This document shows positions 33,394 through 59,400 of a stretch of 64,000 bases of DNA, in pieces (position 1 is the first letter of the stretch; each line of letters opens with the position of its first letter). Made by a program: the position numbers and the translations under genes. Location of the stretch: contig JBCCYL010000003.1 of NCBI GenBank assembly GCA_039189765.1, forward strand, positions 64,001 through 128,000, given 5' to 3'. Origin of the DNA: Cyanobacteria bacterium P01_F01_bin.150 (lineage in GTDB: Bacteria; Cyanobacteriota; Cyanobacteriia; CAKZMO01). The notes under the pieces were generated by a model. That model was not told the origin of the DNA and made no database searches. It saw only the letters and a list, made by a program, of their open reading frames with translations.

Positions 33394-34581
33394 ATGAGGA
33401 TAGAAACAATCCGAATTAAGAATTTTAAGGTTCTCCAGAATCTTGAAATGAATAACCTTCCTCAGCTTTGCGTTATCGTTGGTGCAAACGGTACTGGAAA
33501 ATCGACTTTATTCGATGTATTTGGGTTTATTAAAGATTGTCTCATTCATAACGTACGAAGAGCATTACAGGTGCGAGGAGGGTTTTCCGAAGTTCTTAGC
33601 CGTAATGCTAAGCAACGAAAAATTGAGATTGAGATTCAATTTCGCTTGGAGATTGCAGGGAAAGAACGATTAGTCACCTATATATTATCTATCTGCGAAA
33701 AAGCTCGAAAGATTGTGATCGATCGAGAAATTCTAAGGTATAAACGCGGATCGTATGGTAGTCCGTTTCATTTTCTTGATTTCTCTAATGGTAAGGGATT
33801 TGCCATTACCAATGAGGAAGATTTCTCGAAACCAGATGAAGAACTGCATCGTGAAGAACAGGATTTAGATGCAACCGATATTTTAGCGGTAAAAGGTCTT
33901 GGACAGTTCGATCGCTTTAAGGCGGCCAATGCCTTTCGTAAACTAATTGAAAACTGGCACGTGTCGGATTTTCATATTTCCGCAGCCCGAGGGGCAAAAT
34001 ATGCAGCAGGCTACGAGGAGCATTTATCGGACAGTGGGGATAACCTCCAGCTTGTTGCCCGCAATATTTTTGAAAATCACCCTGATATTTTTGACCAAAT
34101 TATCAACGCCATGAAACATCGGGTCCCTGGAATTGCCGATGTTAAGACTTTGAGTACAGAAGATGGTCGTTTGCTGCTGCAATTTCAAGATGGCTCGTTC
34201 AAAGATCCGTTTATCGATCGTTATGTATCTGATGGCACGATTAAGATGTTTGCCTACTTGGTTTTACTGTACGATCCATCGCCCCATCCCGTTTTGTGTG
34301 TGGAAGAGCTTGAAAATCAACTATACGTCAACTTAATGCCAGAACTGGCTGAGGAATTCCGCAGCTATTCCCATCGCGGCGGGCAGGTATTTGTTTCGAC
34401 TCATTCTCCTGATTTTCTCAATGCTACCCGGTTAGAAGAAGTATTTTGGCTTCAGAAACGCAACGGTTATTCACAAGTTTTCCGAGCCAAAGATAACCAT
34501 CAATTGGCTGCATTTATGGCAGAGGGCGATCAAATGGGTTATTTGTGGAAACAAGGATTCTTTGAAGGAATTGATCCATAA
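33394..34581 (+). CDS. ABC-type (AAA_21 / SMC-like) ATPase
   Basis: IKNFK, Walker A GANGTGKST, signature VSDGT, Walker B LCVEELEN, H-loop STHSP. Confidence 0.9.
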   Translation: MRIETIRIKNFKVLQNLEMNNLPQLCVIVGANGTGKSTLFDVFGFIKDCLIHNVRRALQVRGGFSEVLSRNAKQRKIEIEIQFRLEIAGKERLVTYILSICEKARKIVIDREILRYKRGSYGSPFHFLDFSNGKGFAITNEEDFSKPDEELHREEQDLDATDILAVKGLGQFDRFKAANAFRKLIENWHVSDFHISAARGAKYAAGYEEHLSDSGDNLQLVARNIFENHPDIFDQIINAMKHRVPGIADVKTLSTEDGRLLLQFQDGSFKDPFIDRYVSDGTIKMFAYLVLLYDPSPHPVLCVEELENQLYVNLMPELAEEFRSYSHRGGQVFVSTHSPDFLNATRLEEVFWLQKRNGYSQVFRAKDNHQLAAFMAEGDQMGYLWKQGFFEGIDP

Positions 34582-35141
34582 TGTTCGAGCTAGTTTTTTT
34601 TGTGGAGGGAAGAAGTGAGAAGGTGATGCTGGAGGCATTCTTACCCACAATCCTACCGCCTCATATCTCCCCTCGCTGTGTCCCGTTTGAAGGAAAAAAT
34701 GATTTGCTCAGACGCCTGCCTACTAAGTTACGGGCATGGCAAAATCCACAGTCTAAGTTTATTATTCTACGCGATCAAGATAGTGGCGATTGTCTCAAAA
34801 TTAAAGAAAAAATCCTTAATATTTGTCGTAATGAGAACAAAAATGATGCGGTTGTTCGAATCGCTTGTCGAGAGTTAGAGAGTTGGTCCTTGGGAGATCT
34901 TGTAGCGGTTGAAGAAGGACTACAAATATCTGGCTTAGTGCGTCATCAAAACAAGAAGAAATTTCGTAATCCAGATACATTAGACAATGCTGCCCAAGAG
35001 CTGGGAAAACTGACGAATCAAAAATATCAAAAAGTGTCAGGTTCTCGTGCTATTGGTCCACATCTCAATGTGAAACGCAATCGTTCCCATAGTTTTCGAG
35101 TATTTGTAGAAGGCGTGATGCGGATTGTTAATTCTGCATAA
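34581..35141 (+). CDS. DUF4276/RloB-like TOPRIM-fold protein
   Basis: FFVEGRSE, ILRDQD and RELESW motifs; TAATG coupling to the ATPase. Confidence 0.82.
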   Translation: MFELVFFVEGRSEKVMLEAFLPTILPPHISPRCVPFEGKNDLLRRLPTKLRAWQNPQSKFIILRDQDSGDCLKIKEKILNICRNENKNDAVVRIACRELESWSLGDLVAVEEGLQISGLVRHQNKKKFRNPDTLDNAAQELGKLTNQKYQKVSGSRAIGPHLNVKRNRSHSFRVFVEGVMRIVNSA

Positions 35142-45425: not shown

Positions 45426-45650
45426 AAGGCAGAAGGCAGAAGGCAGAAGGTAGAAGCAGAATGGGGCGTTGGTTTACCTGTACGTAGTGCGTATTGCCTT
45501 CCTCATCTCCAAAATCCAAAATCCAAAATCGCTTGACTCTGACAAAAATTCAGCTGTGGATTACGCTGTCGCGTTTCTTTTATGCTCCTTGGGCTATATC
45601 CACCCTCTTGCTCCGGCTCCCCCAATCCAAAATCCAACATCTAAAGTCCG
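45426..45650. repeat. Short tandem heptamer repeats (STRR-like)
   Basis: (AAGGCAG)n at 45426-45461; (CCAAAAT)n at about 45509-45531 and 45624-45650. Confidence 0.85.
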
Positions 45651-45749
45651 GTGGGCGATCGCTTTTGGTAGATAGAGGCGATACGTGCAAAGCACAGACA
45701 ATCCAACGCCATTTTGGCATTTGGATGATGAATCTGTCAGGTTTGTAGA

Positions 45750-45787
45750 TCGCGTAGGGTGTGTGTAGGCGACAGCCGTAACGCACC
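45750..45787 (+). repeat. GTAG-type REP-like palindrome
   Basis: TCGCGTAGGGTGTGTGTAGGCGACAGCCGTAACGCACC; 37/38 identical to the inverted copy at 53375-53412. Confidence 0.85.
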
Positions 45788-45792
45788 GATAT

Positions 45793-46575
45793 TTAGCCAA
45801 AGCCGCCCAAAGATGTTTGGCTAAAGCTGCCTGCGCTTTGGCTGGCTCGTATAGCCGATTGGGAAAATATTTGAAACGCCTGACGAATATCCTTTTGGCT
45901 ATTACCCGGTGTCAGAATCCACTCATCGCGAATCCCCATTGCCCGAAATACATGATGGAAATCCGTTTGGCCATCATCAATGCCCATGCCCGCAACAATA
46001 TGATTTTCACTGCGCAACATAGCCTCCACCAGCGTTTTCACCTGTTTCGCCGTAGCCCGACTAGAGCCATCCGCCCCATCAGTAATGATTAAGGTTACCG
46101 TCCGTACTGGAACACCATTATCGTCAAACTCTTGAGTCTTCGCCAGCACCGTCCCCAGTAGCACCAGCGTTTGTTCATACAGCGGTGTACCTTTGTTGGG
46201 ATTGTAATTTTGGCTGTCCATCCGCACCGCCTGCTTGACCGGGCAGTAGGGATATAGCACCGCTCCGTTTAAATAGCGATTGTGTACCAGAATATTGTCC
46301 TGTTGTTTGGAAGTCGCCAACGCATCCAGAATTGTATTATGTCCGGCTCGCACCACCGCACTATTGCCTGAAAATTTAATCGACCCGGAATCATCCGGCA
46401 TAATCGTCATCAGCACCACTTCACTGGACATCACATCATCCACATGAATACCCAGCCCGGCCTGAATTTGGGCACCAATATCCACCACATTAAGCGCCTG
46501 CATTGACGCATTCGATAATAAACCATCCTCATGGGCAGTCTGAAACAGATTATCGATATTAGGAGTTGAAGTCAT
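45793..46575 (-). CDS. vWA-domain protein (TerY/YegL-like)
   Basis: MIDAS elements PDDSGSI, GTPLY, IITDGAD; GGAG RBS. Confidence 0.82.
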   Translation of the reverse strand: MTSTPNIDNLFQTAHEDGLLSNASMQALNVVDIGAQIQAGLGIHVDDVMSSEVVLMTIMPDDSGSIKFSGNSAVVRAGHNTILDALATSKQQDNILVHNRYLNGAVLYPYCPVKQAVRMDSQNYNPNKGTPLYEQTLVLLGTVLAKTQEFDDNGVPVRTVTLIITDGADGSSRATAKQVKTLVEAMLRSENHIVAGMGIDDGQTDFHHVFRAMGIRDEWILTPGNSQKDIRQAFQIFSQSAIRASQSAGSFSQTSLGGFG

Positions 46576-46586
46576 TGAAATTCTCC

Positions 46587-47117
46587 GAATTTTAGATTTT
46601 GGATTTTGAGATTACTGTCAAAAAATGCACGCAGAAATCCTGTGATGCGATAAGCCAGAGACCATGAGTGGCAGACCCTCACCGCACCTTAATTAATTGA
46701 ATGAACCCTTAAAGCCCTGAACGATTCTCTCCAACTCCCCTTAATCAAGCAGGGAATTCAGCTGAGACGTTCGGCGATCGCTCAGCCGAGCCGCTCACAT
46801 CGAAACCTAGCCCCCTCTCAAGCCAGGAAATTAGACATTTACAGAAAAAGACTACCGAATATTCACAGCAAATGGAGGTCAAGTGTTCCTGCTAATGACA
46901 CGTTCCCCTCCTGGGAGGGGCTAGGGGTGGGTCTGATCGACACGCTAAACACATACCGCTTTTTAAGAGAGATTGAAGGGGATCTCTTCCCTTGTTTCCA
47001 GTGTCCCGCAGAAAAGCCCATCTGAGACTCTGCCTCAGACAAGATAGCGGAGCCAGAGTCTCCTGAAAGAGCACCCAGCCAGAGTCTGGGCACCAGGAAT
47101 TTTAGATTTTGGATTTT
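46587..47117. repeat. Repeat-rich spacer bounded by identical 21-bp direct repeats
   Basis: GAATTTTAGATTTTGGATTTT at 46587-46607 and 47097-47117; inside are small palindromic repeats such as CCCCTCCTGGGAGGGG and CCCAGCCAGAGTCTGGG. Confidence 0.85.
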
Positions 47118-48159
47118 AGCTTAGCTCTATCCCTGGCCAAGTCTCGATCGCATCTATGGATTGCACCACCTTCATTCCCGCATCAGCAAATCGCTGAAAC
47201 GCACCATCTGCCTGATCCGTAAAGTCCACCACCCCCGGCACCACCACTGGAGACGTACAGTCCTCCAGCAGGTAGACTTTTTGGGCTAATGCCGGATCTT
47301 TGGCCTGAATTTCCGTAAGCAAATCATCGATTGTCCATGCGACACAGTGGCTCTTAGCCTGTCCCGCGATAATCACCGCATCAAAGTCCAGAAGCTTTTG
47401 GATAAAGCGAGTATTCTTCTGGGCAATGGGCCGACCATCGGGACCGTCTAATACCTCTGGTCGCAACACCGAGTAGTTTTCCGTTAAGGGGTTGCCGCCT
47501 TTGACCTCAAAATTTGTTTGGCTATTACGAGCCAGATTATGGAAAAAGCACGCTTCCTCCACCGCTGACACCAGCGCGTAGCTAATGCCCCCCAGCATGG
47601 CATGATAGGGCCAAATGGTCAGGGGATATTTGCCATCTTCACTCAGGCGCTTGGCATAGTGGAGAGCAAAGGATTGCAGCGCCATATAGTTGCCGTTGGC
47701 AATGCTGTAGGCGATCGCCGGATTGATTTTCCAGCGTCCCTGCTGCACATCATCCAAATCAATCATAGTTAGCGGTGCCGGATTTTCTCCCGCATCGTTA
47801 ATCCAAAAATCGCTATGGAAAATCTGCATCGCCGTATGGGTATCCAGCGTCGGCGCAATTTCCGTTATCATCCCCAAATTACGATAGATAAATTCGCACA
47901 GCCGCACATTATCCTCCACTGCCCCCGTCCCCGATCGCCCCCCAACAAATAGCTCAAAATCGGGAATACAGAACGTATTTTGGGCATCAATAATCATCAG
48001 ACAAATGCGGGTTTTATCCTTAGCAGCAGGGGGTAGCTGATGCTGCTTAGCCCACTGTTTGGCCTGGCCTGCTCTCTCTTGGTAGGGGACGCGCCACACT
48101 TCACCAACGCGGGTGCGATCAAAATGGGTAGGAATAGGAAGCTGGGTCAAGGTAGTCAT
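47116..48159 (-). CDS. Cysteine hydrolase (isochorismatase superfamily), nicotinamidase/PncA-like
   Basis: Catalytic D (IIDAQNTF), K (EVKG) and C (AGQAKSHCV); metal-site-like TLDTH and WPYH; ATG at 48159 with GGAG RBS. Confidence 0.82.
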   Translation of the reverse strand: MTTLTQLPIPTHFDRTRVGEVWRVPYQERAGQAKQWAKQHQLPPAAKDKTRICLMIIDAQNTFCIPDFELFVGGRSGTGAVEDNVRLCEFIYRNLGMITEIAPTLDTHTAMQIFHSDFWINDAGENPAPLTMIDLDDVQQGRWKINPAIAYSIANGNYMALQSFALHYAKRLSEDGKYPLTIWPYHAMLGGISYALVSAVEEACFFHNLARNSQTNFEVKGGNPLTENYSVLRPEVLDGPDGRPIAQKNTRFIQKLLDFDAVIIAGQAKSHCVAWTIDDLLTEIQAKDPALAQKVYLLEDCTSPVVVPGVVDFTDQADGAFQRFADAGMKVVQSIDAIETWPGIELS

Positions 48160-48172
48160 AGCGTGTTCTCCG

Positions 48173-50140
48173 TTAGGTAAGTTGAAGTTGTTGAATGTGG
48201 TGGGCACTGACAGCGTAAAGACCAGAGGTCGCTGGCAGCAGACGACAGCTTGAATCTACAAAGGGTTCAGTGTCCGGAAATACCTTAGTTTGCATTAGCT
48301 GATCGTTTTGGCGGTCGATACGAATAATTCCTGTATCGGTGGCCGCCAGCAGAAAATCATTGACGGCATAGAAGGGACAAGGATCGATAAATAATGCTTT
48401 GGAATCGCCCAAATGTGCCAACCAATGCTCCAATCCTTGAGACGCTTTTGTTTCAGCCAGGACTGTACCGTCAGCATTAAGAACGATGCAGCGGTAGTGG
48501 ATCTGCCCCTGCTCCTGGGTAATTAAAAATAGCCAGCCACGGCTCGACTTTCGCACCGCTGAGCGGTTAAAACCGCAGGTGGCGTGAATCAGCGCTCCCT
48601 GCCATGTCGGAAGCTGGACCCGGTCGTTAATCCCAGGACGCTCCCCATCAAAGACAAACGCAACGGTTAATTCCCCTGCCTGATAAAAACCAAAGCCAAA
48701 GCGATCGCCCACCCATATTTGCGTATGTCCCCCTGGCAAGACCGTCCCCATAACTATGCTGCTGTCCTGAGCGATCGCGACTGATGTCTGCATCTGATTG
48801 CCCGATAACTGACGCCGCAATAGTTGTCCTTGATTGATCCAGTATTGGGATTGGGAATTTACGTCAAACTGGGCGATCGCGCCGTAACTCTCTACGGCTA
48901 AGCGGGACTGCGGTGAGACCAAACAAACCACCTGTCCCTGTTGACCAATAAGCGTAGTTCCACCCTGAATTCGCCAGCGGAGGTTGGGCATTAAAGAACC
49001 ATTTAGCAACACCGTGCCATCCTCTCGCTTAAACGCATCCTGCTCCCAATAGATCCAAGACAGCTTTCCAGCCTCAACCGTAGCCGATAAGATAATACCT
49101 TCGGTGGTAAAAACAGGCGTAACGGTAACATTCCCATAAACCGTTTCCGTTGGTATGGCGGACGCTTGACGAGACGCCTGAATAGGTGAAGACACCGTGC
49201 AGTTAGGACAGTGCGATCGCGCATGGTCAATCCCGCAGGTGGTGCAGGTGGTCCACCGAAGGCTTTCGAGGAGCGATCGCGGCAGCATACCCCGCCAATC
49301 CTGTTCAAACACTTGATGAAAATGCTGCAAGAGTTCATCCGGCAGGCAGTCGTACGGTAAAGCAGGCTTGGGATAGCGCACCTCTGGGTGAAACACAGTA
49401 ATCCGCTTCAATGACCGGGCACTTTGGGGAACGCGCTGACTTTTATCCTTGGGTTTATGCACACCACCATAAGGATCGACAAACAACAAACACTGCATCA
49501 GCATTACCGAAAAGGCATACCAGTCGGATTCCACCGTATGGGACTGCTGTAGTATCGGTTGATTCGCATCAGGGTCACAAAGTAACGGATCGACAAAGCG
49601 GGCCGTAAACATAGGACAGGAAAACGCTCCAAACTGAAAGGAATCGGTATCAATAATGTACGCTGACCTATCCTTGACCAGCACGTTTAAATCATTAAAA
49701 TCGCCAATTACAACGTTCTGCTGATGTAGCTGGGTGATAGTGCGGTGCAAATCCAAGAAGATATCCACCACGGTTTGAGCCGCAATCCCCTGGCGGAAAG
49801 CGCGATCGCCATACCTCAACAATACCTCCGTATCCTTTACCAACGGCATGGTGTAGCCTAATATCTGCCGCTCTCGCTTATCCATCGCTAACTCTTGGGG
49901 ACTAATCACTCGTTCCGGTAAGCCCACCGGAAACTGACGGAGCTTTTGCTGATGCTGGCGGAGGCGATCGCGTGCGGCTTGCTGAGCCTCTGGCATCCCC
50001 GCAAAGTCTGGGTGGTCAGGGGGCTTAAAGACCTTTATGGCGCGATCGCGTCTCCATTGAAAGACGTCTGCTTCTCCTCCCTTGCCAATGGCATTTTTTG
50101 CAGTGAGCCGAACTTTTTGCTGATTAACGTAAATATCCAT
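48173..50140 (-). CDS. YegI-like Ser/Thr protein kinase with zinc ribbon and beta-rich C-terminal region
   Basis: GKGGEA, AIKVF, HQQNVVIGDFNDLNVLV, IIDTDSFQ, SDWYAF; CTTC-x8-CPNC. Confidence 0.85.
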   Translation of the reverse strand: MDIYVNQQKVRLTAKNAIGKGGEADVFQWRRDRAIKVFKPPDHPDFAGMPEAQQAARDRLRQHQQKLRQFPVGLPERVISPQELAMDKRERQILGYTMPLVKDTEVLLRYGDRAFRQGIAAQTVVDIFLDLHRTITQLHQQNVVIGDFNDLNVLVKDRSAYIIDTDSFQFGAFSCPMFTARFVDPLLCDPDANQPILQQSHTVESDWYAFSVMLMQCLLFVDPYGGVHKPKDKSQRVPQSARSLKRITVFHPEVRYPKPALPYDCLPDELLQHFHQVFEQDWRGMLPRSLLESLRWTTCTTCGIDHARSHCPNCTVSSPIQASRQASAIPTETVYGNVTVTPVFTTEGIILSATVEAGKLSWIYWEQDAFKREDGTVLLNGSLMPNLRWRIQGGTTLIGQQGQVVCLVSPQSRLAVESYGAIAQFDVNSQSQYWINQGQLLRRQLSGNQMQTSVAIAQDSSIVMGTVLPGGHTQIWVGDRFGFGFYQAGELTVAFVFDGERPGINDRVQLPTWQGALIHATCGFNRSAVRKSSRGWLFLITQEQGQIHYRCIVLNADGTVLAETKASQGLEHWLAHLGDSKALFIDPCPFYAVNDFLLAATDTGIIRIDRQNDQLMQTKVFPDTEPFVDSSCRLLPATSGLYAVSAHHIQQLQLT

Positions 50141-51065
50141 AATTTTTCCTCATCACTACCAACGTCGTGTCGTCTGGCAGCAATCCTCCAGTTTTAATAA
50201 GCTGTTGGCTAGCCCAGTCTGGCGTTGTCCGCTCACGATTAATTAGGGCCAACCGTCGTCGAACCATGTCAGGATTTTGAAAGTAGCGATCGCCCTGCCA
50301 AAACTGACTGAGATCGCCAATCGGTTCAGGGTTATTCGATAGTTTGCTTGGAAGTGAATGAGAAGCGATTGCCCTCAGATCCTCTACGCCATCGCTACCA
50401 ATCAGAATCGATCGCACCTCTGATGTTGGCGCTTGATAATGCATGGCAAATTGTAGTTTTTCAGGGATAAAGGATGTGTAGCCTTCCGGCATCAGACCAT
50501 AGGCTAAATAAGGCGGTGCATTATTGGAAAATGGCCCAATGGAGAACACGTCATCATTGACGGCAAAGACACCATCGCCGACCCCAAACACAAGGGTTGT
50601 CTCAGGAGTCATAACGGCCCCAATGACGGTGAATAGTAAATAGGATTGAATAATTGACCAGTTGGTGATGTCAGATGAGGACGGCTGGAGGGTCGTAATC
50701 AGCGATCGCATCTTTCCCAACACATCCTGCTGTACCCGACGCCATAATTGAGGGTCTGTAATATCAGCACGAACTTGGAGCTGGGCAGCAACGGCATTTA
50801 CAACCCACTTTGCGCCTAACCTTGCGCCGACCTCGCTAAAGGGACCGCTCCCACAGCCATCACAGACAACGGCGATCGCCCCGGTATTTCCTGCTTGCTG
50901 CGGATAACTAGATGACTCGACACTGTCTTTATCTTCAATCGTCGGCAGCTCTAAATAACGCCAGGCAAATGCGTCCTGATTATTCTGGCCTTTACGTCGA
51001 TGGACGTGCCCCTGGACAGAGCCAGCGGCAATCTCAATATGTTGTTGAGTAGGGTGCTGCTGCAT
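50124..51065 (-). CDS. PP2C-family phosphatase (YegK-like)
   Basis: GSVQG..H....NNQDA, VCDGCGS, GVGDG, GSDGV, DDTTL; ATG at 51065 with AAGGAG RBS; overlaps the kinase by 17 bp. Confidence 0.88.
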   Translation of the reverse strand: MQQHPTQQHIEIAAGSVQGHVHRRKGQNNQDAFAWRYLELPTIEDKDSVESSSYPQQAGNTGAIAVVCDGCGSGPFSEVGARLGAKWVVNAVAAQLQVRADITDPQLWRRVQQDVLGKMRSLITTLQPSSSDITNWSIIQSYLLFTVIGAVMTPETTLVFGVGDGVFAVNDDVFSIGPFSNNAPPYLAYGLMPEGYTSFIPEKLQFAMHYQAPTSEVRSILIGSDGVEDLRAIASHSLPSKLSNNPEPIGDLSQFWQGDRYFQNPDMVRRRLALINRERTTPDWASQQLIKTGGLLPDDTTLVVMRKNYGYLR

Positions 51066-51086
51066 AGGAATGCGGCTCCTTTTTGA

Positions 51087-51107
51087 ATAGTGTAAATAAA
51101 ACACTTA
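51087..51107. promoter_or_regulatory. Operator palindrome 2 (NrtR-type GT-N7-AC box) in the 5' UTR
   Basis: aTAGTGT-aaataaa-ACACTTa. Confidence 0.7.
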
Positions 51108-51120
51108 TCCCGACGCTTCC

Positions 51121-51149
51121 ATGTTAGTGTTCAAAATACACTATGTCAA
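51121..51149 (-). promoter_or_regulatory. Sigma70-type promoter of the PP2C-kinase-nicotinamidase-vWA operon
   Basis: Minus strand TTGACA (51149-51144), 17-bp spacer, TAACAT (51126-51121). Confidence 0.8.
51124..51144. promoter_or_regulatory. Operator palindrome 1 (NrtR-type GT-N7-AC box) between -35 and -10
   Basis: tTAGTGT-tcaaaat-ACACTAt, perfect 6-bp arms. Confidence 0.75.
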
Positions 51150-51224
51150 GATAGAGTTTTGCTATTCCTCTGTTAGAAGTCTGTATGCGTTGAAATAATT
51201 GGGGGATAGCCTATAGGTTTAAAT

Positions 51225-52292
51225 TTAAGAGACCAGAATATGGCCCATGCAAAGTCCAATCAGCAGACCAACAGCAGCACTGATAGCAAAGACTTGACTT
51301 CTTGCCCGCTGCGTATATCCCAGAGTTTTCATTTCAACCCAGCCAATTGCCCCTAATCCAAGTCCTCCGATGCCCAAAAACAGCAAAATAGCCATGGGAA
51401 AACGACCAGACACAATTACCGTACGGCCATAGCCCGCAAACAGCCAGTTGGCGCTACTAATGAAAAGAGTTGCAATTCCTGCGACCCATAAGCTGTCAGA
51501 CAAGGCTTTGCGCCAAGACCACCCTAAAAATTTCAAACTGACGATAAGGGTTAACAGGACCAACCCAGCAAACAACAGCGCCCAGAGAGAAAGGCCAATA
51601 CTGACTAGGGTGGCGATCGCACCACACACTGGCAAAAACCAAACCAGCGCCTCATCCCAAGCCACAATCAAGGCACTACTCCAAACCAAAAGTCCTGCCC
51701 CCACTCCCGTCTGATATAGTCCCAGCAAAATTCCCAAACACACATACCCCAGGATTAATAGTGCGAGAGGAGGGCGGGGAAGTTTTGTCCAGTGCTGTAA
51801 AGTAAGACGAGTGTAAGCAGGAGTAGCGAGAGTTTGTGGCCGCGAAAGCGTTACGGAAGCTGGGATCTGGGATCTAGGCAATGTAGCTTCAGGGTTATCA
51901 GGCACAGGAGTAGACAACGGGGTTGCAGTTGATTCTACGACCGGGATTCTTAATTCATCAGGGCGTACAGCCTCGGGTAAGTGCTCAATATCACTCGGCG
52001 AAAATTGAGCACCGTCTAATTGTGCCTGCTCCCAAACAATGCCCTCCAACTGGGCACCACGAACGTTGGCCTTTTTTAGATTGGCTCCCGTGAAATTTGC
52101 GTGGCTGAGGTTTGCTTTATACAGATTAGCGGTGAAAAGATTGGCCTGTTCAAACTGAGCATGGGAGAGATTGGCTCTGCTAAAATCGGCCCCCACCAAC
52201 TCTGCGCCTCTTAAATCAGCGTGACGTAAATCGATCCATTTAAAATTGCGCTTGCCCGTTTTATACAAGTCTAAAAATTCCGCCACATTCAT
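51225..52292 (-). CDS. Pentapeptide-repeat membrane protein
   Basis: Y..GKRNF..IDL.HADL.GAEL..ADFSRANL repeats followed by several TM helices. Confidence 0.88.
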   Translation of the reverse strand: MNVAEFLDLYKTGKRNFKWIDLRHADLRGAELVGADFSRANLSHAQFEQANLFTANLYKANLSHANFTGANLKKANVRGAQLEGIVWEQAQLDGAQFSPSDIEHLPEAVRPDELRIPVVESTATPLSTPVPDNPEATLPRSQIPASVTLSRPQTLATPAYTRLTLQHWTKLPRPPLALLILGYVCLGILLGLYQTGVGAGLLVWSSALIVAWDEALVWFLPVCGAIATLVSIGLSLWALLFAGLVLLTLIVSLKFLGWSWRKALSDSLWVAGIATLFISSANWLFAGYGRTVIVSGRFPMAILLFLGIGGLGLGAIGWVEMKTLGYTQRARSQVFAISAAVGLLIGLCMGHILVS

Positions 52293-52469: not shown

Positions 52470-53348
52470 GTGGTATCTCAATTTGTTCAATTGCTGGTCC
52501 GCTCTTCTACCACCCTAATGAAGAGATTAATGTCTTTGACTACGGTTTGGGTCGTGCTGGTTTTAGCTGTTGGGATGCTGAGCGAGCCAGCGTGGGCCGG
52601 AGCATTGCCTCAACTACCGCTGTTTAGGACCCAACATGAATTGAGCGATCGCATTGCATCGTTTCCAAACTGGACCACTAAGCCACCAGTAAAAGACTCT
52701 GAAGGAGATTTGGTCTATCCTGACTGGTTTGAAGGGGAGTGGCAGATGACGTCAACCCTCGTGAATATGGTAGCTCCACTGGCACCTGACGTGATCACGC
52801 CAGGGTTTGAGGGAAATCGGCAGTTTTTAGACCGACCCATTACAGCTCCCATTCGATTTGTCAGAAAGCCGGTGGAAAGCGGTCGGTTTTTGGGCCAAAG
52901 CATTAAGGCACAAGAAAAAGTGGTCTCGGATCGGGCCTTTAATGGGTTAAGTTTGGCGCGGGCTTACCTGGGGGATGAAGCCGTAGATGATGTAAAGGTC
53001 GATCCGGATAATGCTAATCGTCAGATTACGTTTCTAAATGATGGACAACAGTTAAGTTCTACTGTAACGGGACGATTAGTGGAGCAGGCGGCTGACGATA
53101 GATTTACTACGACAGAGATTTTTCAGCAGTTTTTTGGGGGCGATCGCCCCACCATCTACCTAAATGCAGTCGAAAATACAACCGCCTATCATCAGATTGA
53201 TTCCGAAGAGGATGTCCAAACGTCTCCCGTAATTACGGCGGATCAAATTACTGCTATTTACCTATCGCCTCAAGACCCAGACTACTTTAAAGCTAGGGAT
53301 AAACCCGTGGCTCTTTATCGTTATCGCCTGGATCTTAAGCGAGACTGA
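52470..53348 (+). CDS. Conserved exported protein (DUF6816-like)
   Basis: Signal peptide AWA, GDLVYPDWFEGEW, DRAFNG, YLSPQDPDYF...PVALYRY; start uncertain. Confidence 0.75.
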   Translation: MVSQFVQLLVRSSTTLMKRLMSLTTVWVVLVLAVGMLSEPAWAGALPQLPLFRTQHELSDRIASFPNWTTKPPVKDSEGDLVYPDWFEGEWQMTSTLVNMVAPLAPDVITPGFEGNRQFLDRPITAPIRFVRKPVESGRFLGQSIKAQEKVVSDRAFNGLSLARAYLGDEAVDDVKVDPDNANRQITFLNDGQQLSSTVTGRLVEQAADDRFTTTEIFQQFFGGDRPTIYLNAVENTTAYHQIDSEEDVQTSPVITADQITAIYLSPQDPDYFKARDKPVALYRYRLDLKRD

Positions 53349-53422: not shown

Positions 53423-56400
53423 CTAGACAAAGTCAGCACTGGTGATTTGGTTTACGTCAACTCCGACTAGAATAGCGACTTGATTTTGTCCTTGGGACAG
53501 GATGGTATTGTTGCCCTCTTGAGTCAGGGTGAGTTTATTAAATTTAACGCCTCTCAGCAAATCAGTGCCATCTTGGAATTTGCGAATGGTATCGGGTCCT
53601 CCCTTCTTAGAAAGAACGAAAATATCCTTTCCTCCGCCACCAATTAGCAGGTCTTCCCCTTTACCTCCAACTAATTTATCGTTGCCGCCGCCCCCTTTAA
53701 GAACATCGTTGCCCTTACCGCCTTTGAGAGTGTCATTACCGCCGCCGCCGATTAGGACATCGTCTCCATTGCCGCCCTTAAGATTGTCTCGACCCTGGCC
53801 ACCTACTAGACGATCGTTGCCGTTAAAACCCAGCAATTTATCGTTCCCTCCTTGTCCTTTAATCGTGTCGTTAGCATCGCTACCGACTAGGCGATCGCCA
53901 CTGGCACTACCCACAAGATCTAAGGAAGCAGAAGCACCATCATCGCTTTTAGGGGTAAGAACATCCGTTGAGGTATCCAGGTCATTAGCGGTTGGAGATG
54001 TCGTTGGTGTAGTCGGCGTTATTGTGGCCGTATCATCACTGGGAGTCGTTGTCGGCGTTGTCGGCGTTGTTGTTGGCGTTGTTGTTGGCGTTGTTGTTGG
54101 GGTGGTTATGGGAGGCGTTACTACGACCGGAGCCTCTGCGATGGTGAGAACCATCTGGTTGGCCACGCTTAAGCCAGCTCGGTCTGTGGCCATAACCTCA
54201 AGCGTTAGCTGTCCTACATCACTATCTGTGGGGGTACCGCTAAAGGTTTGGGTATTTCCATTGAAGACTAGCCAACTGGGCAAAGCTGCACCGTTGGATT
54301 GTTTTGCACTAAAGGTTAGGCGATCGCTTGGGTCCACATCTGCAAACGTACCGTCAGGCACAGTCGCCGTAAAGGCAACGGTTGCGGTGGCAGAGGCATC
54401 GGCCAGAGGACTGGCGACAGTGGGGGCATTGTTGGCAATCACATTCAGTTCAAAGGTGTCTTCTGTGGATTGATTATCTTGGTCCGTGGCGGTAACTGTC
54501 ACCCGAATGGTTCCCACATCGCCATCGGTGGGTTGACCACTAAAGGTTTGGGTCATGACATCAAAGGTAAGCCAGCCGGGCAAAACGCTGCCATCGTCAA
54601 GATTTGCCGTATATGTCAATTGATCATTAATATCCACATCTTGGAACGTAAGCGGGTCAACGGCCATATCAAAAGTGGCTCCAGCGATCGCCACCTGGTC
54701 GGCCAGCGGATTGATAGTGGTAGGCGCATCGTTTAATGGTTCCACCAGTAATTCAAAGGTTTCTACTGTGGACACGGTACCATCACTAACGCTAACGCTA
54801 ATGGTGGCTGTACCGACCTGATTAGATTGTGGCGTGACGGTAAGAGTACGACTATCACCACTGCCAGTTATAGCAAGTCCATCCACTGTCACTAGATCGG
54901 GATTTGAAGAGGTAGCAACAACCGCAAGCGCCCCAGAGGGGGTTTCAGTATCGCTCAAATTGTTAATCTCAACAGTGACGCTGGTGTCCTCATCAAGGGT
55001 TTGGTCGCTGATGGCATCCATTTGAGGCGCATCATTGCTTGCAGCAACAGTGACATCAAACTGGGTAGAGACCTCATCGGTGCCATCACTGGTAGTAACG
55101 GTGACAGTCGCACGTCCTGACTGGTCCGCAGCAGGGGTAATGGAAAGGCTGCGATCGCTCCCCGTCCCGTCTAAGACCAAACCGGATTGGGGCAATAACG
55201 CTGAATCGGACGAAGTAACACTTACCGTCAGATTGTCAGGATCGAGTTCTAAATCATCCAATCGAATGGCGATCGCATCAATCACCCCATCTTCATCCAC
55301 CGTCTGGTCGGCGATCGCCTCGATCATTGGCACATCATTTACGGCTTCTACATCCACCGTAAAGCTATCGGTAGTGATATTTGTGCCATCATTTACCGTT
55401 ATCGTTAGTGTCGTTGTGCCAAAGGCATTCGCGACAGGTTCCAAACTGAGAGTGCGATTTTCGCCATTGCCGCCAAGCATAATATTGGCATCGGGCAAGA
55501 GCCCAGGATTGGAGGACGTAACCGTCACCAGCAAGTTGTTGGCATTAGTTTCCAAGTCGCTAACTGTAAATGGAATATTGGTAAGGGGGGTATCTTCTAG
55601 TGTTGTTTGGGCGATTGGAACCTGTAGCGTTGGCGCATCATCAACCGGATCAACAACAACATCAAAGATTTGGGTGGCGGTAGCAAAGCCATCACTGAGG
55701 GTAAGGGTAATGGTGCTGGAACCAATAGCATTGGCGCTAGGAGTAATAGATAGAGTGCGATCGCTGCCTGAGCCTTCCACCACAATATTATTGACGGGAA
55801 TCAGTTCAGGATTGGAGGACGCTGCCGTAATCGTCAACGCTCCCGCTGGGCTTTCCACATCAGATACTTGAACCGAAATATTGGTAAGGGATGTATCTTC
55901 CGCCGTGCGTTGAGTGGCGATTGGCCCTAAAACTGGCGCATCGTTATCCGGCACCACCGTAATTTCAAAGGTTTGGGTAGAGATATTGGTGCCGTCGCTA
56001 ACCTTTACGGTAATTTCAGTGGTGCCAAACTGATCGGGGGCAGGCAGGATCGTCAAACTGCGATTGGCGGTTGTCCCAGTAATCGTGATATTTTCGTCAG
56101 GAATCAACACCGTATCGGTGGACGTAGCACTGACCAATAAGGCACCAACTGGGTTGTCAGAATCCGCAACCACAAACTCAATGGGGGCAGAAAGCGTATC
56201 TTCTAAGGTGCTCTGTGCATCAATAACCGACACAATGGGCGCATCGTTATCGGCTCCAACGGTCACAGCAAAAGAGGTCTCTGTGGTTTTATCTCCATCA
56301 GTGACCATTAGGGTAACAGTGGTGCTGCCGGACTGATCAGCCTCTGGGGTAAGCACTAGGGAGCGACTAGTGCCAGTCCCGCTGATAGCGATGCCGTTGG

Positions 56401-59400
56401 GCGTCAGCAGATCTAAGTTAGAAGAGGTCGCAGTAATGCTTAACCCGCCGATGTCGGAGTCAATATCATCCACGGTAAAGGGAATGGCATTGGAAAATCC
56501 ATCTTCAGAAATCGCCTGATTGGAAATAGTTGAGATGCTGGGAGCATCATTGACGGGAGTAACCGTTAACTCAAAGTCTTGGCTGCTGGATGTAATTCCA
56601 TCACTAACCGTCACGGTAACCATGGTGGTTCCAGATGCATCTTCGGCTGGAGTAATGGCGATCGCCCGTTCACTGCCCGTGCCCGCAATGGTAATATTTT
56701 CGTCCGGAACCAAAGCACCGTCAGCCGCTGTGGCCGTAACGGTAAGCTCCCCAGCGCTATGGTCAAGATCAGAGATGGTAACCATGATTGGAGAAGTTGT
56801 GCCGTCTTCTGCAACCGACTGATCTGCTATTACAGATAGGGTAGGAGCATCATTTTCAGCAGCGACAATCACCTCAAACATCTCAGTTGTTGTAATGTCG
56901 CCATCGTCCACCAAAAGAGTAATAGTAGCCGTGCCGCTGCTGTTGCTGACGGGAGAAATGCTTAGGGTGCGGTCATTTCCCCTACCGCCAAGGATAATTT
57001 GGCTGGAGGGAATTAAAGCCGAATTGTCAGAGGTGGCCGTAACCGTGATCGCCTCAGCATCCGTTTCCAAATCATCAACGGTAAAGTTTAAGGCTGCAAC
57101 GGTGCCATCTTCTGCAATTAGCTGGTCGGCGATCGCAGTAATCGTCGGCTGATCGTTGACTGCATTGACAACCACATCAAAGGTCTGGGTGACGGTGGCT
57201 TCTCCATCATTAACGGCAATAGTAATCGCCGTAGTGCCGGACAAATCGGCATTGGGAGTAATAGTTAGAAATCGCTCGCTGCCTGTGCCCGTAATGACAA
57301 TATTGTTGTTGGGGACTAAGGTGGTGTTAGAAGACGTAGCCGTGACCAGTAGGTTTTCCGCTGCCGTTTCAATATCACCAATGGCGATCGCCAGCCCGTC
57401 TATGGGAGTGTCCTCATCGGTTATTTGGGTGGCGATCGCCGCTAACGTGGGTTGATCATTATCAGGGACGACCACAACTTCAAAGGTCTCTTCTGTCAGT
57501 AGGCTGCCATCATTGACGCCAAGGGTAATCATGGTAGTGCCAAATTGATTCACCGCAGGGGTGACGGTGATCGTCCGATTTGCGCCGTTGCCACCTAGGG
57601 TAATCGCGCCATTGGGAATCAGCGCTTGATTGGAGGATATAGCCGTAACCACCAGGTCTTCAGTTAGGGTCTCCACATCACCAATGGTAAAGCTGATCGC
57701 CTCACTCCGGCTATCTTCGACGATGATCTGATTGCCAATGGAGCTGAGGGTCGGTGCATCATTCTCCTCTCCCACTGACAAATTAAAGGTTTCCGTTATC
57801 CGATCAACCCCATCGTTAACGGTGATAGTGATAATAGCTGAACCAGAGGTATTGCTGGCAGGGTTTAGGGTCAGCGTTCGATCTTGACCCGAACCGCCTA
57901 GAACAATGCCATTAGCTGGCAGTAAATCGGGGTTGGAGGATGTCGCGGTAATGATTAGACTATCCGGAGCCGTCTCCACATCACTAACGCTAAAGGTCAG
58001 CCCTGAGACCGTCTCGTCTTCTCCGATCGCCTGGTCTTCAATGGCCGTAATCGTGGGCAAATCGTTTTCGGGAGAGACAACCACATCAAAGGTTTGAGAA
58101 ACCGTATTATTTCCGTCATCCTCTAGCTGAACCGTAATGGTTGCCGTGCCAAAAGCATTGGCCACAGGGGTAAAGGAAAGCGTTCGAGCGGTACCGCTAC
58201 CGCTGACCACAATGGCGTCATTGGGCAATAGATCCGTATTATCTGAACTCGCGGCAATGGTGAACAAACTGGTGGGAGTATCCACATCATTGACGCTAAA
58301 AGGAATGGATACCGTATTGCTATCCTCCAAAAGCTGCTGGTCGTTAAAGATGGACAGCACAGGGGCGTCGTTTTCTGGAGCTACCACTACATCAAAGGTC
58401 TCGGTAGTAGTGTTCAGCCCATCTTCAACCGTTACGGTAATCGTGGCGGTGCCAAACTGATCGGCGGCGGGGGTAATGGTTAGGGTGCGATCGCCCCCAA
58501 TCCCCGATAGCTGAATATTGTCGTTGGGAATCAGGGTTGTATCAGAGGACATGGCCTGAACCGTCAACGTGTGAATGGCATCATCCACATCATCGATTTG
58601 AACGGCGATCGCCTCCGTTACCCCATCTTCAGCAATTGCCTGGTCGCCAATACTGCTAATAGTAGGGGCATCGTTTTCCGGCGATACGGTGACGCTAAAG
58701 GTCTCAGTGGTGGTGAGGTTTCCATCCCCCACAGTAATCGTAATATCGGTAGTCCCCGTTTGATTGGCTATCGGATCAATGGTGATAGTGCGGCTATCTC
58801 CCGTCCCCGTGGCCACTAAGCTATCCACCAGCGTCGTATTGGAGGAGCTAACGTTAACAGTTAACGTATCGCTGGCGGTTTCAGCATCACCAATGGTAAA
58901 CGTAAAGGCATTATTGGTGCTGTCTTCAAGGATGACGCGATCGCTAACCGCACTAATGGTGGGGGCATCGTTTTCTGGATCGACCGTAACCGTAAAGGTT
59001 TCTTCAGTTGTGTTTTCCCCATCCGTAACGCTGAGGGTAATTATGGCAGTCCCTGACTGATTTGGCTCAGGGGTGATAGAAAGGGTTCGAGCGTCGCCAA
59101 ACCCCAGTAACTCAATATTGTCATTGGCAATCAAAGCCTGATTATCCGAGACAGCGGTGACCTGGAGAGCAAGGGACGGAGATTCAATATCACTGATGGT
59201 AAAGGGAATCGCCGTAATTGCTGTGTCTTCCGTGGTTGTTTGATCGCTAACGGCATTGATAGTGGGAGCATCATTATCAGGCGTTATGGTGACATCAAAG
59301 GTCTCCGTAACGGCATCAGCGCCATCATCCACTGTCAGAGTAATCGTGGCCGTGCCGTATCCATCGGCGGCTGGGGTCACGGTGATGGTGCGATTCTCCC

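Follow-up and report, generated by a model that had tools for sequence, protein, structure and literature searches.

On the minus strand of the window, which comprises 64,000 nucleotides of contig JBCCYL010000003.1 from Cyanobacteria bacterium P01_F01_bin.150, four co-directional genes encode a PP2C-type protein phosphatase, a Ser/Thr kinase, a nicotinamidase-like cysteine hydrolase and a vWA-fold protein, and we consider it probable that they form an operon for NAD-turnover-responsive nicotinamide salvage, which is induced by ADP-ribose and equipped with a phosphorylation switch. The original prediction had described the same gene set as a TerY-P-type defence or stress system with a built-in nicotinamidase under NrtR control; all sequence features that it listed were confirmed. 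The TerY-P-type architecture, the nicotinamidase and the NrtR control are supported by our analysis, whereas the defence framing is not, and of the two roles offered at that time, the gating of salvage after NAD loss fits better and the denial of nicotinamide to phages fits worse. We found no paper describing this four-gene cassette.

The open reading frame of the PP2C gene spans positions 50124-51104 and its upstream GTG (51104) falls within one of the two operators discussed below; the ATG at 51065, with AGGAG 10 nt before it, is likely the true start, resulting in a protein of 313 amino acids (50124..51065, minus strand), which matches PF13672 (PP2C_2, E 4.8e-19) and contains CDGCGSG, GSDG and DDTT, which we take to be the motifs of PP2C. 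Orthologues with 33-55% identity occur in 22 of the 80 loci surveyed. The gene overlaps the kinase gene by 17 bp (50124-50140) and the ATG of the hydrolase follows the kinase stop after 13 bp, both as originally read. Genes surrounding the operon in the window are of the housekeeping type (psaAB, gyrB).

Upstream of the PP2C gene, a -35 hexamer TTGACA (51144..51149, minus strand) and a -10 hexamer TAACAT (51121..51126, minus strand), read in the sequence by consensus, together match the consensus in 10 of 12 positions with a 17-nt spacer. By themselves, such hexamers are no more frequent than chance would give (7 promoter-like sites against 7.4 expected); the two accompanying palindromes, found as originally read, far exceed chance expectation. 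Both are of the form GTGT-N7-ACAC: operator 1 (GTGTATTTTGAACAC, 51127..51141, extended palindrome 51122-51146, 25.7 bits) is situated within the promoter spacer, and operator 2 (GTGTTTTATTTACAC, 51090..51104, extended palindrome 51085-51109, 22.8 bits) between the -10 hexamer and the ribosome-binding site, at a distance of 37 bp that recurs in two other loci (L015 and L041). Scored with a matrix made from 37 sites of related loci (training minimum 16.9 bits), they are the best and second-best sites of the 10.64-Mb genome and its sole strong ones, the third-ranked site (11.3 bits) staying below the training minimum. Of 71 loci tested, 28 have at least one box of this form ahead of the orthologous cluster (39 sites in total), namely the 18 in which nrtR adjoins the cluster and 10 others, and the flanks of the boxes are conserved outside the imposed core (cTTAGTGTaa-N3-ttACACTAAg); six tested triad loci (L037, L038, L060, L070, L073 and L078) have no such box. 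The nrtR gene adjoining the cluster in these 18 loci is divergent and encodes a second NrtR paralog, NrtR-2, which is also present in 24 of the 26 kinase-positive genomes; altogether, an NrtR gene lies near the cluster in 22 of the 80 loci. The NrtR-2 orthologue of P01_F01_bin.150 has an intact Nudix box and is 62-73% identical to five cluster-linked NrtRs (43% for the pncB-linked paralog), and is encoded on another contig (C28:3544-4248), unlinked to the operon. The palindromes are predicted to be operators of this dedicated NrtR-2, an assignment supported in silico by the boxes that all 18 loci with a divergent nrtR share. Since neither pncB nor nrtR-2 has a GTGT-N7-ACAC box upstream in the P01_F01_bin.150 genome and nrtR-2 is unlinked, coordination of the operon with the pathway is only putative. 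ADP-ribose weakens the DNA binding of NrtR in vitro (Rodionov et al. 2008, PMC2330246) and, by analogy with the proteins described there, it would turn the operon on.

The kinase gene (48173..50140, minus strand) encodes an N-terminal kinase domain, a zinc ribbon and a C-terminal domain of ~330 amino acids; the C-terminal half gave no match in domain and profile searches. The protein matches Pkinase weakly (E 5e-4, below the cut-off) and can be aligned with E. coli YegI over 326 aa (E 1e-9). All 18 orthologues compared retain G19, G21, K36, D147, N152, D164 and D166 as well as C299, C302, C311 and C314 of the zinc ribbon (49199..49246, minus strand), which itself gave weak matches to Nop10-type zinc ribbons. 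The last gene (45793..46575, minus strand; 260 aa) encodes a protein without a match in Pfam, NCBIfam or PADLOC, the AlphaFold2 model of which (pLDDT 86) has its best Foldseek matches among vWA and integrin I domains (E about 1e-6); the MIDAS residues D61, S63, S65, T130 and D166, and also D62, are invariant in 28 homologues, confirming the predicted vWA protein with a complete MIDAS motif. It is separated from the hydrolase gene by 540 bp (46576..47115), in which two dispersed repeats (~46806-46959 and ~46975-47099), flanked by a 21-bp direct repeat AAAATCCAAAATCTAAAATTC, have 220 BLASTN matches genome-wide (80-88% identity over 100-155 bp), and one of which contains a terminator-like hairpin (47017..47043, minus strand; a 12-pair stem followed by a T-rich tail, by consensus match only). 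As repeats and hairpin fill this gap, co-transcription of the vWA gene is not assured in P01_F01_bin.150, where the insertion may have uncoupled it.

The four genes occur in identical order in 19 of the 80 loci, and the vWA gene directly 3' of the hydrolase gene in 30. Among 121 cyanobacterial genomes, the hydrolase is present in 89, the kinase in 26, the vWA protein in 23 and an ADP-ribosylglycohydrolase in 26; kinase and vWA occur together in 22, all 23 vWA-positive genomes possess the hydrolase, and its gene adjoins that of the vWA protein in all of them except one (G161). Kinase, vWA protein and glycohydrolase are add-ons to the nicotinamidase, and since 89 genomes have the hydrolase but only 26 the kinase, phospho-control is not essential to hydrolase function. 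None of the six genomes of the window's own family contains the kinase, and in a quick tree the triad-linked hydrolases do not form one clade.

The glycohydrolase (PF03747, E about 1e-36) is encoded within the cluster or adjacent to it in 17 of the 80 loci and occurs in 16 of the 26 kinase-positive genomes, which is compatible with a cyanobacterial variant of the ARG-centred systems (Iyer, Burroughs, Anantharaman and Aravind 2022, PMC9503650). In that case, the main task would be to remove ADP-ribose from modified proteins, with binding of these proteins assigned to the vWA protein and signalling to kinase and PP2C; the nicotinamidase would serve to clear nicotinamide, both a product and an inhibitor of ADP-ribosyl transfer. 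The systems of section 3.8 of that paper likewise feature a Nudix-HTH regulator and a vWA protein, and a TY-Chap1/YbjN chaperone is encoded near the cluster at one locus (L054). However, a close glycohydrolase orthologue is absent from P01_F01_bin.150 (best match 40% over 128 residues, on another contig), whose operon and operators are nonetheless intact, and it is the nicotinamidase that is most conserved and widespread (89 against 26 of 121 genomes). Furthermore, the phosphatases of the published systems are rhodanese-type, calcineurin-like, HD or HAD, and the main text of PMC9503650 contains no PP2C, TerY, nicotinamidase or isochorismatase and has the word cyanobacteria once, outside section 3.8. 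We therefore regard this explanation as unlikely.

Regulated nicotinamide salvage, the reading we prefer, depends on the identity of the hydrolase (47116..48159, minus strand; 347 aa), which has no match in Pfam (including PF00857, Isochorismatase), NCBIfam (including the nicotinamidase model) or PADLOC. A profile of 79 homologues matches yeast Pnc1 (3.9e-8), A. baumannii PncA (3.2e-7) and M. tuberculosis PncA (1.2e-6), and a Foldseek search with the AlphaFold2 model (pLDDT 97.3) places nicotinamidases on all ranks from 1 to 15, with other amidases of the fold ranking lower, at TM-scores of up to 0.81 (normalised to the solved chain) and 11-18% identity to the solved nicotinamidases. The predicted D/K/C triad (D58, K220, C272) and DTH/WPxH pattern (D106-T-H108, W183-P-Y-H186) were found and are conserved in the 79 homologues, with D106, H108 and H186 forming the D-H-H metal site; D8 and H94 of yeast Pnc1 align with D58 and H186. 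Within this fold, an Asp-His-His metal site marks nicotinamidases. The hydrolase also tracks pncB: in the 121 genomes, which are related and hence not independent in these co-occurrence counts, both genes are present in 86, only the hydrolase in 3, only pncB in 6 and neither in 26. The pncB gene adjoins the hydrolase gene divergently in six genomes of one family and lies upstream of the PP2C gene at L060, and cluster neighbours elsewhere include NMNAT-NAD kinase fusions, Nudix, NadE and NadD-like genes. P01_F01_bin.150 itself carries pncB-nadD-nrtR away from the operon and, as all six of its PF00857 paralogs stay below the cut-off of the NCBIfam nicotinamidase model, apparently no canonical PncA or other candidate nicotinamidase. 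Fold, profile matches, active-site residues and pncB coupling support in silico that the protein is a cyanobacterial long-form nicotinamidase and the partner of PncB.

Alternatively, the protein might be an amidase that shares the fold and the metal dependence but has a different substrate, either another pyridine-carboxamide or a signalling molecule with an amide group, which would place the triad outside the NAD pathway. The protein has ~130 extra residues, which in the structure model extend the N terminus and form helices around positions 135-174, and is missed by the family models, so its substrate could differ; the low identity to the solved enzymes and the N-terminal domain of ~245 aa on fused relatives point in the same direction. 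Against this stand the Foldseek ranking, the metal site retained alongside the triad, the tight coupling to pncB, NrtR and further NAD genes in bacteria and phage, and the want of an alternative nicotinamidase in a genome that bears pncB, and we judge another substrate to be quite improbable.

The same four genes are also found in a complete phage genome (96,961 bp; terminal repeats, HK97 capsid gene), in the tight string pncB-like-PP2C-kinase-hydrolase-vWA, the PncB-like gene (1ybe, E 3.6e-41) being directly 5' of the PP2C gene; no GTGT-N7-ACAC box was found at this cassette. Because a complete phage genome bears them, the genes appear to serve regulated NAD recycling rather than to act as an anti-phage weapon. 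A TerY-P-type defence system, induced by ADP-ribose from immune NADases and destroying nicotinamide, so as to keep phages from restoring NAD, or signalling abortive infection through its kinase, would agree with the triad architecture, with the stand-alone anti-phage TerY-P-like modules reported, with reference to Gao et al. 2020, in PMC11090510, with the patchy distribution of the triad (26 of 121 genomes have the kinase, and none of the six of the window's family) and with a NAD cleavage product as a plausible inducer, but it is very improbable: the PADLOC scan, in which none of the models matched, TerY-P included, gave only weak generic kinase matches, no nuclease, TIR, SIR2 or ART domain was detected in the 87 neighbour ORFs scanned (of 204 flagged), the strong conservation of the hydrolase and of the vWA protein (70-81% identity) across cyanobacterial families is not what rapidly evolving defence genes show, the hydrolase goes together with pncB across genomes, the pyridine ring survives deamidation and the product feeds PncB-based resynthesis, the surroundings in the window are housekeeping genes, and a phage is unlikely to keep a system that starves phages of NAD precursors.

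In the salvage operon as we envisage it, nicotinamide and ADP-ribose would come from NAD-consuming reactions. NrtR-2 bound at the operators should block RNA polymerase, because these lie in the -35/-10 spacer and just past the -10 hexamer, and ADP-ribose would free it, as it does other NrtR proteins, allowing transcription; as its Nudix box is intact, NrtR-2 may hydrolyse its own inducer, which would make the response transient. The hydrolase, in silico the partner enzyme of PncB, would convert nicotinamide to nicotinate, from which PncB and NadD, whose genes are located elsewhere together with that of the other NrtR paralog, would lead to NAD, the final step being presumably catalysed by a NAD synthetase, the gene of which was not located in P01_F01_bin.150. 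PP2C, zinc-ribbon kinase and vWA-MIDAS protein represent a TerY-P-type triad accompanying the nicotinamidase in bacteria and phage: kinase and PP2C may set the phosphorylation of the hydrolase, the vWA protein or another target, the MIDAS site may read this state and the ~330-aa C-terminal domain of the kinase may sense a signal.

With the NrtR salvage regulons (e.g. nrtR-pncA-pncB; Rodionov et al. 2008, PMC2330246) the operon shares a Nudix-wHTH repressor, palindromic operators with a GT-N7-AC core that either overlap the promoter or lie behind it, a target that is a nicotinamidase in the PncA-PncB route and ADP-ribose as the expected inducer. The cyanobacterial regulon in Table 1 of that paper (pncB-nadD-nrtR-nadE, nadA, nadM-nadV) differs in listing no nicotinamidase, kinase, PP2C or vWA genes, and here a second, Nudix-intact paralog has one operon as its sole strong genomic target. 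The hydrolase resembles PncA/Pnc1 (2h0r, 2wt9, 3pl1, 1ilw) in fold, Asp-Lys-Cys triad, Asp-His-His site and WPxH and KG...YS motifs, but it is longer (347 versus 180-235 aa), shares 11-18% identity, escapes the Pfam and NCBIfam models and is a member of a separate, extensive family (2339 representative clusters at E up to 1e-3).

The triad corresponds to TerY-P as defined in PMC11090510, i.e. vWA-MIDAS, PP2C and a Ser/Thr kinase followed by a zinc ribbon, encoded together, yet it has an enzyme gene between kinase and vWA, another gene order and no match to the PADLOC TerY-P models. In the comparison with E. coli YegL-PphC-YegI, the kinase domain shows homology to YegI (E 1e-9) and the ~330-aa domain past the zinc ribbon is extra; the match of PP2C to PphC covers 25 residues at E 0.003, and that of the vWA profile to YegL has 31% probability.

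NARP1 and NARP2 are NAD reconstitution pathways of phages. These pathways and the phage NadV-NadM salvage covered in section 3.6 of PMC9503650 are comparable to the 97-kb phage in that NAD rebuilding is phage-borne; its route would be deamidating (nicotinamide to nicotinate to NaMN), unlike theirs, and it adds a kinase, phosphatase and vWA module; a use of the cassette by phages against immune NAD depletion is hypothetical. From the ARG-centred systems with Nudix or WYL regulators (PMC9503650, section 3.8), the operon differs in being centred on a nicotinamidase, in pairing its PP2C with a kinase, in having no nuclease effectors and, in P01_F01_bin.150, no glycohydrolase, and in the cassette being carried by a phage as well, whereas the NrtR-type regulator, the glycohydrolase (in the loci of relatives), the vWA protein, a phosphatase and the lack of a linked ADP-ribosyltransferase are common to both.

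The minus strand of the window carries four genes in head-to-tail order: a PP2C phosphatase ORF (50124-51104, with the likely start ATG at 51065 and AGGAG 10 nt before it), a protein kinase (48173-50140), which overlaps the phosphatase by 17 bp, a hydrolase (47116-48159), which starts 13 bp past the kinase stop, and a vWA protein of 260 aa (45793-46575). On the same strand, TTGACA (51149-51144) and TAACAT (51126-51121) stand 17 nt apart; one palindrome, GTGTATTTTGAACAC (box 1, 51141-51127), occupies the spacer between them and a second one, GTGTTTTATTTACAC (box 2, 51104-51090), is found between the -10 element and the ribosome-binding site. On reading the sequence, all of the items named in the original prediction, that is genes, overlap, promoter and both palindromes, were thus located. 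A gap of 540 bp (46576-47115) separates the hydrolase from the vWA gene and carries two dispersed repeats of ~155 and ~125 bp, which have 220 BLASTN matches genome-wide (80-88% identity) and are bordered by a 21-bp direct repeat. Since these repeats, one of them with a terminator-like hairpin, occupy the gap, the vWA gene may be uncoupled from the rest of the operon in this genome. Rfam yielded no match across 45500-51400. A single marine metagenome study accounts for all DNA runs in which the stretch is present, three in number and one of them a possible source; no RNA run is listed.

Around the operon, the window holds psaA-psaB and gyrB, along with genes for a pentapeptide membrane protein and for a giant adhesin. 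The gyrB gene (30385-33279) is interrupted by an intein, with DNA_gyraseB, Toprim and Intein_splicing domains in one ORF of 964 aa. At 33394-35141, ~10 kb from the operon, an AAA_21/AAA_15 ATPase (395 aa) adjoins a DUF4276 protein (186 aa), a pair which looks like a small defence-type module. Upstream of the operon, the pentapeptide-repeat membrane protein (51225-52292) and a DUF6816 protein (52470-53348) are followed by the adhesin ORF (53423-61714; 2763 aa), which contains Big_9, cadherin-like, He_PIG and RTX repeats.

No match was found for the hydrolase in Pfam, NCBIfam, PADLOC or PHROGs, and PF00857 and NCBIfam NF008623 in particular did not match even at E up to 10; among 19 scanned relatives, PF00857 matched one above the cut-off and one more just under it. 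As neither these sequence-only searches nor a single-sequence PDB search gave anything useful for the hydrolase or the vWA protein, profiles and structure models were needed for both. The AlphaFold2 model of the hydrolase (pLDDT 97.3) adopts an isochorismatase-like alpha/beta fold, and in Foldseek ranks 1-15 are all nicotinamidases, with 2wta at the top (E 1.3e-11, TM 0.79 on the target). A profile built from 79 homologues retrieved yeast Pnc1 (3.9e-8), Acinetobacter PncA (3.2e-7) and M. tuberculosis PncA (1.2e-6). Within these 79 homologues the Asp-Lys-Cys triad (D58, K220, C272) is conserved to at least 90% at each position and falls on the triad positions of yeast Pnc1 in the alignment, D8 being confirmed by counting; the Asp-His-His metal ligands are equally well kept, with D106 and H108 conserved to at least 90% and H186, which corresponds to Pnc1 H94 in the profile alignment, invariant, and these ligands, too, fall on their counterparts in Pnc1. 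Within the fold, an Asp-His-His metal site is known as a mark of nicotinamidases. Six canonical isochorismatase-family genes of the same genome resemble BiuH, RutB or YcaC, and none of the six attains the nicotinamidase cut-off in NCBIfam. The hydrolase is therefore the likely nicotinamidase of pncB-bearing cyanobacteria, which escapes the standard models.

The family shows some variation of its own. Six relatives (P0243, P0247, P0250, P0252, P0256, P0280) are fused to an N-terminal domain of ~245 aa, conserved in six representative clusters. Comparison ruled out that this domain is the vWA protein; Pfam scans of six fused proteins at full length gave no match for it, nor did the Atlas (P0243, residues 1-245), and it is absent from the window's genome and from the fetched loci. 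P0340 is a shorter form of the enzyme, duplicated in tandem. Two genomes (G156, G243) hold two hydrolase copies each, one of them 81% identical to that of the window and placed beside kinase and vWA genes, the other 61-64% identical and located elsewhere.

The distribution of the hydrolase follows that of nicotinate phosphoribosyltransferase, PncB. The hydrolase occurs in 89 and PncB in 92 of 121 genomes of the class: 86 hold both, three the hydrolase only, six PncB only and 26 neither, counts which are not independent because the 121 genomes are related. Several exceptions concern incomplete assemblies or lie at contig ends. Both genes are divergent neighbours in six genomes of one family (f32), pncB lies upstream of the PP2C gene in locus L060, and in the window's genome pncB is found on another contig (C67), as part of pncB-nadD-nrtR. 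By this pattern of co-occurrence and neighbourhood, the hydrolase is the predicted partner of PncB.

NrtR repressors recognise a GT-N7-AC core at repressor-like operator positions, and two NrtR proteins are released by ADP-ribose, as described in the accessible text of Rodionov et al. (2008, PMC2330246). In each of the 71 loci with sufficient upstream DNA we searched 320 bases around the start of the first cluster gene and found the GTGT-N7-ACAC palindrome 39 times, in 28 of the 71 loci, with ~0.35 expected at base-neutral odds; every one of the 18 loci in which nrtR is adjacent carries one box or more. The consensus is cTTAGTGTaa-N3-ttACACTAAg, in which the flanks are conserved though not imposed by the search. 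In a matrix scan of the whole 10.64-Mb genome the two boxes of the window rank first and second (25.7 and 22.8 bits), the third-best site reaching 11.3 bits and the weakest training site 16.9; no operator of the GTGT-N7-ACAC type is found upstream of pncB or of the gene for the second NrtR in this genome. Regulators adjoining the cluster match NrtR_WHD and NUDIX. The window's genome has two NrtR paralogs: that of pncB-nadD-nrtR carries a degenerate Nudix box, and the second one (NrtR-2, contig C28, 3544-4248; NrtR_WHD 7.5e-26, NUDIX 1.8e-21), unlinked to the operon, is 62-73% identical to five cluster-linked NrtRs and holds an intact GX5EX7REUXEEXGU box. Rodionov et al. also note that an NrtR homologue from cyanobacteria whose Nudix signature is intact is active as an ADP-ribose pyrophosphatase (PMC2330246, accessible text). 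The palindromes are thus the predicted operators of a dedicated NrtR paralog, and the data define a second NrtR paralog with an operator of its own. The part of the original prediction which concerned NAD and NrtR is supported.

The three remaining proteins are the constituents of a TerY-P-type triad. The PP2C protein matches PF13672 (E 4.8e-19). The kinase has a weak Pkinase match under the cut-off (E 5e-4), and E. coli YegI aligns with its first 326 residues (E 1e-9); in 18 orthologues the glycine loop, K36, D147, N152, D164 and D166 are invariant, as are all four residues of a zinc ribbon (C299, C302, C311, C314). After the ribbon follows an additional domain of ~330 residues, and for this C-terminal half of the kinase neither Pfam nor a profile search of the PDB gave a match and the Atlas returned its own kin only. 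The vWA protein was modelled with a pLDDT of 86 (AlphaFold2) and matches vWA/integrin I domains (Foldseek, E ~1e-6); its MIDAS residues D61, S63, S65, T130 and D166 are invariant in 28 homologues. A complex prediction for the hydrolase and the vWA protein scored 0.02 against a mark of 0.32 and weighs neither way.

The complete four-gene set is one of several arrangements. We fetched 80 hydrolase loci and mapped the window proteins and recurrent neighbours onto them; one locus (L010) contains decayed remnants and a few are truncated by contig ends. The whole set in the order of the window is present in 19 of the 80 loci and a vWA gene follows the hydrolase in 30. The full cluster is also carried by a culturable strain, Nodosilinea nodulosa PCC 7104 (L043). 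An NrtR-type regulator (NUDIX and NrtR_WHD) occurs in 22 of the 80 loci, usually divergent and upstream, and an ADP-ribosylglycohydrolase (ARH, PF03747) is found in 17, either between PP2C and kinase or directly 5' of the hydrolase. The forms seen are nrtR divergent from PP2C-ARH-kinase-hydrolase-vWA, also without ARH; nrtR divergent from ARH-hydrolase or from the hydrolase alone; hydrolase-vWA; and a lone hydrolase. Further recurrent neighbours, in a scan of 87 of 204 flagged ORFs, are pncB, NMNAT-NAD kinase fusions, Nudix genes and a second glycohydrolase. Of the 121 genomes, 26 have the kinase, 23 the vWA protein and 22 both; 26 have the glycohydrolase. The NrtR type linked to the cluster, recognised at 60% identity or more, is found in 34, the others having only a ~45%-identity paralog, and 24 of the 26 kinase-positive genomes have it. 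Kinase and vWA protein are absent from all six genomes of the window's own family in this sample, and in a quick tree the triad-linked hydrolases do not form one clade.

Several peculiarities of these loci should also be noted. In the cyanobacterial loci L010, L011, L036, L052 and L061, Uma2-family genes (putative restriction-endonuclease-like) interrupt the gene row, either within the cluster itself or in the interval from nrtR to PP2C. The cluster-linked ADP-ribosylglycohydrolase gene contains one in-frame TGA in each of three genomes of one genus (G157, G176, G196), and is tandemly duplicated in G192, G210, G241 and G254. Eight loci (L007, L014, L020, L032, L037, L038, L076, L078) encode hydrolases 66-81% identical to that of the window, most with the full cassette, on contigs labelled Actinomycetota, Gammaproteobacteria, Andersenbacteria, Spirochaetes, Patescibacteria, Parcubacteria, Planctomycetota or Woesearchaeota; these labels reflect either mis-binning or true spread outside the cyanobacteria.

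Searching viral records with single proteins, we found the cassette in a complete phage. This IMG/VR record (L100; 96,961 bp) is rated 100% complete by CheckV, shows direct terminal repeats and encodes an HK97-type capsid protein (E 2.7e-42); it carries a PncB-like gene, PP2C, kinase, hydrolase and vWA genes in a tight string. The best PDB match of the PncB-like gene is the nicotinate phosphoribosyltransferase 1ybe (E 3.6e-41), and identities to the window proteins are 30% for PP2C, 42% for the kinase, 70% for the hydrolase and 58% for the vWA protein; neither an NrtR gene nor boxes were found in the record. At 8922-9902, 3' of the phage cassette, lies a gene for an RNA ligase of the Naegleria Rnl type (E 9e-44). 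A further record (L099), 99.97% identical, represents only part of this phage. In a third one of 318 kb (L098) the cassette sits between NadE and an NMNAT-like gene; as it is classed as a provirus and has no terminase or capsid match, it was not counted as phage.

These data bear directly on the defence role which had been proposed for the operon, namely that of a TerY-P-type anti-phage system by which the host starves phages of nicotinamide. In its favour speaks the architecture, as vWA-MIDAS protein, PP2C and kinase with zinc ribbon are all present; this part of the TerY-P assignment stands, but with a limit of E 0.01 none of the four proteins matches a TerY-P model of PADLOC, the hits being confined to weak PD-T4-6 and MkoA kinase ones. 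The neighbourhood survey likewise revealed no SIR2, TIR or ADP-ribosyltransferase domain (87 of 204 flagged ORFs). A phage retaining the cassette beside pncB, moreover, is hard to reconcile with a weapon starving phages; keeping the cassette next to pncB fits NAD rebuilding. The defence role is not supported. Because the four genes adjoin a PncB-like gene in a complete phage, the cassette is relevant to the contest between NAD-depleting immunity and phage NAD rebuilding, and its side in this contest is probably that of rebuilding.

We therefore favour regulated NAD salvage: the operon appears to be an NrtR-controlled nicotinamide salvage operon that took in a TerY-P-type triad, is shared with a phage and is undescribed. 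The in silico data show the enzyme type, the link to PncB, the operator with its regulator and the constant company of the triad, this last for some of the genomes and for one phage. According to the proposed chain, NAD-consuming reactions would release nicotinamide and ADP-ribose; ADP-ribose would lift NrtR-2 off both boxes, whereupon NrtR-2 may degrade it; the hydrolase would convert nicotinamide to nicotinate for PncB; and kinase and PP2C, for which the MIDAS protein would serve as reader or target, would gate the enzyme or its partner, the C-terminal domain of the kinase sensing the signal behind this gating. We consider the whole chain, including phospho-gating, somewhat probable, and the first three of the points shown in silico, taken alone, more so; direct phospho-control of the hydrolase in particular seems rather doubtful. 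Still more speculative, and in our opinion improbable, is the wider proposal that one conserved cassette for gated rebuilding of NAD, with a triad-switched nicotinamidase, is swapped between bacteria and phages, under NrtR control in the host and with PncB in the phage. Here, the C-terminal domain of the kinase would detect NAD loss or infection and the triad toggle the nicotinamidase; hosts would hold the cassette under an NrtR paralog which both senses and hydrolyses ADP-ribose, and in phages the cassette, paired with their own PncB, would provide a third, deamidating route of restoring NAD after the action of immune NADases.

What is known of the control of bacterial NAD salvage is mainly transcriptional (NrtR, NiaR, NadR). 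If the salvage reading is true, dedicated Ser/Thr phosphorylation of the first salvage enzyme would represent a new layer of control, and TerY-P triads, for which we know of no established mechanism, would gain a concrete biochemical setting.

No paper describing this combination of genes was found in the open literature searched; the hydrolase gene may already have been named pncA. TerY-P systems are defined by a vWA protein, a PP2C and a kinase with C-terminal zinc ribbon (PMC11090510, text as accessible), and with this definition the operon agrees at the level of architecture; compared with E. coli, the likeness of its PP2C to PphC and of its vWA protein to YegL is weak. The operon is not on the list of the cyanobacterial NrtR regulon in the accessible part of Rodionov et al. 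(2008, PMC2330246). Systems centred on ADP-ribosylglycohydrolase (ARG) were compared as well (Iyer et al. 2022, PMC9503650): in the available portions of that paper nicotinamidase, isochorismatase, PP2C and TerY are unmentioned and 'cyanobacteria' appears once, outside section 3.8. The window lacks the glycohydrolase gene and its genome a close orthologue, and in place of a rhodanese-type, calcineurin-like, HD or HAD phosphatase the operon has a PP2C paired with a kinase. With the ARG-centred systems, as far as the available portions describe them, our clusters share the type of regulator, the glycohydrolase and the vWA protein.
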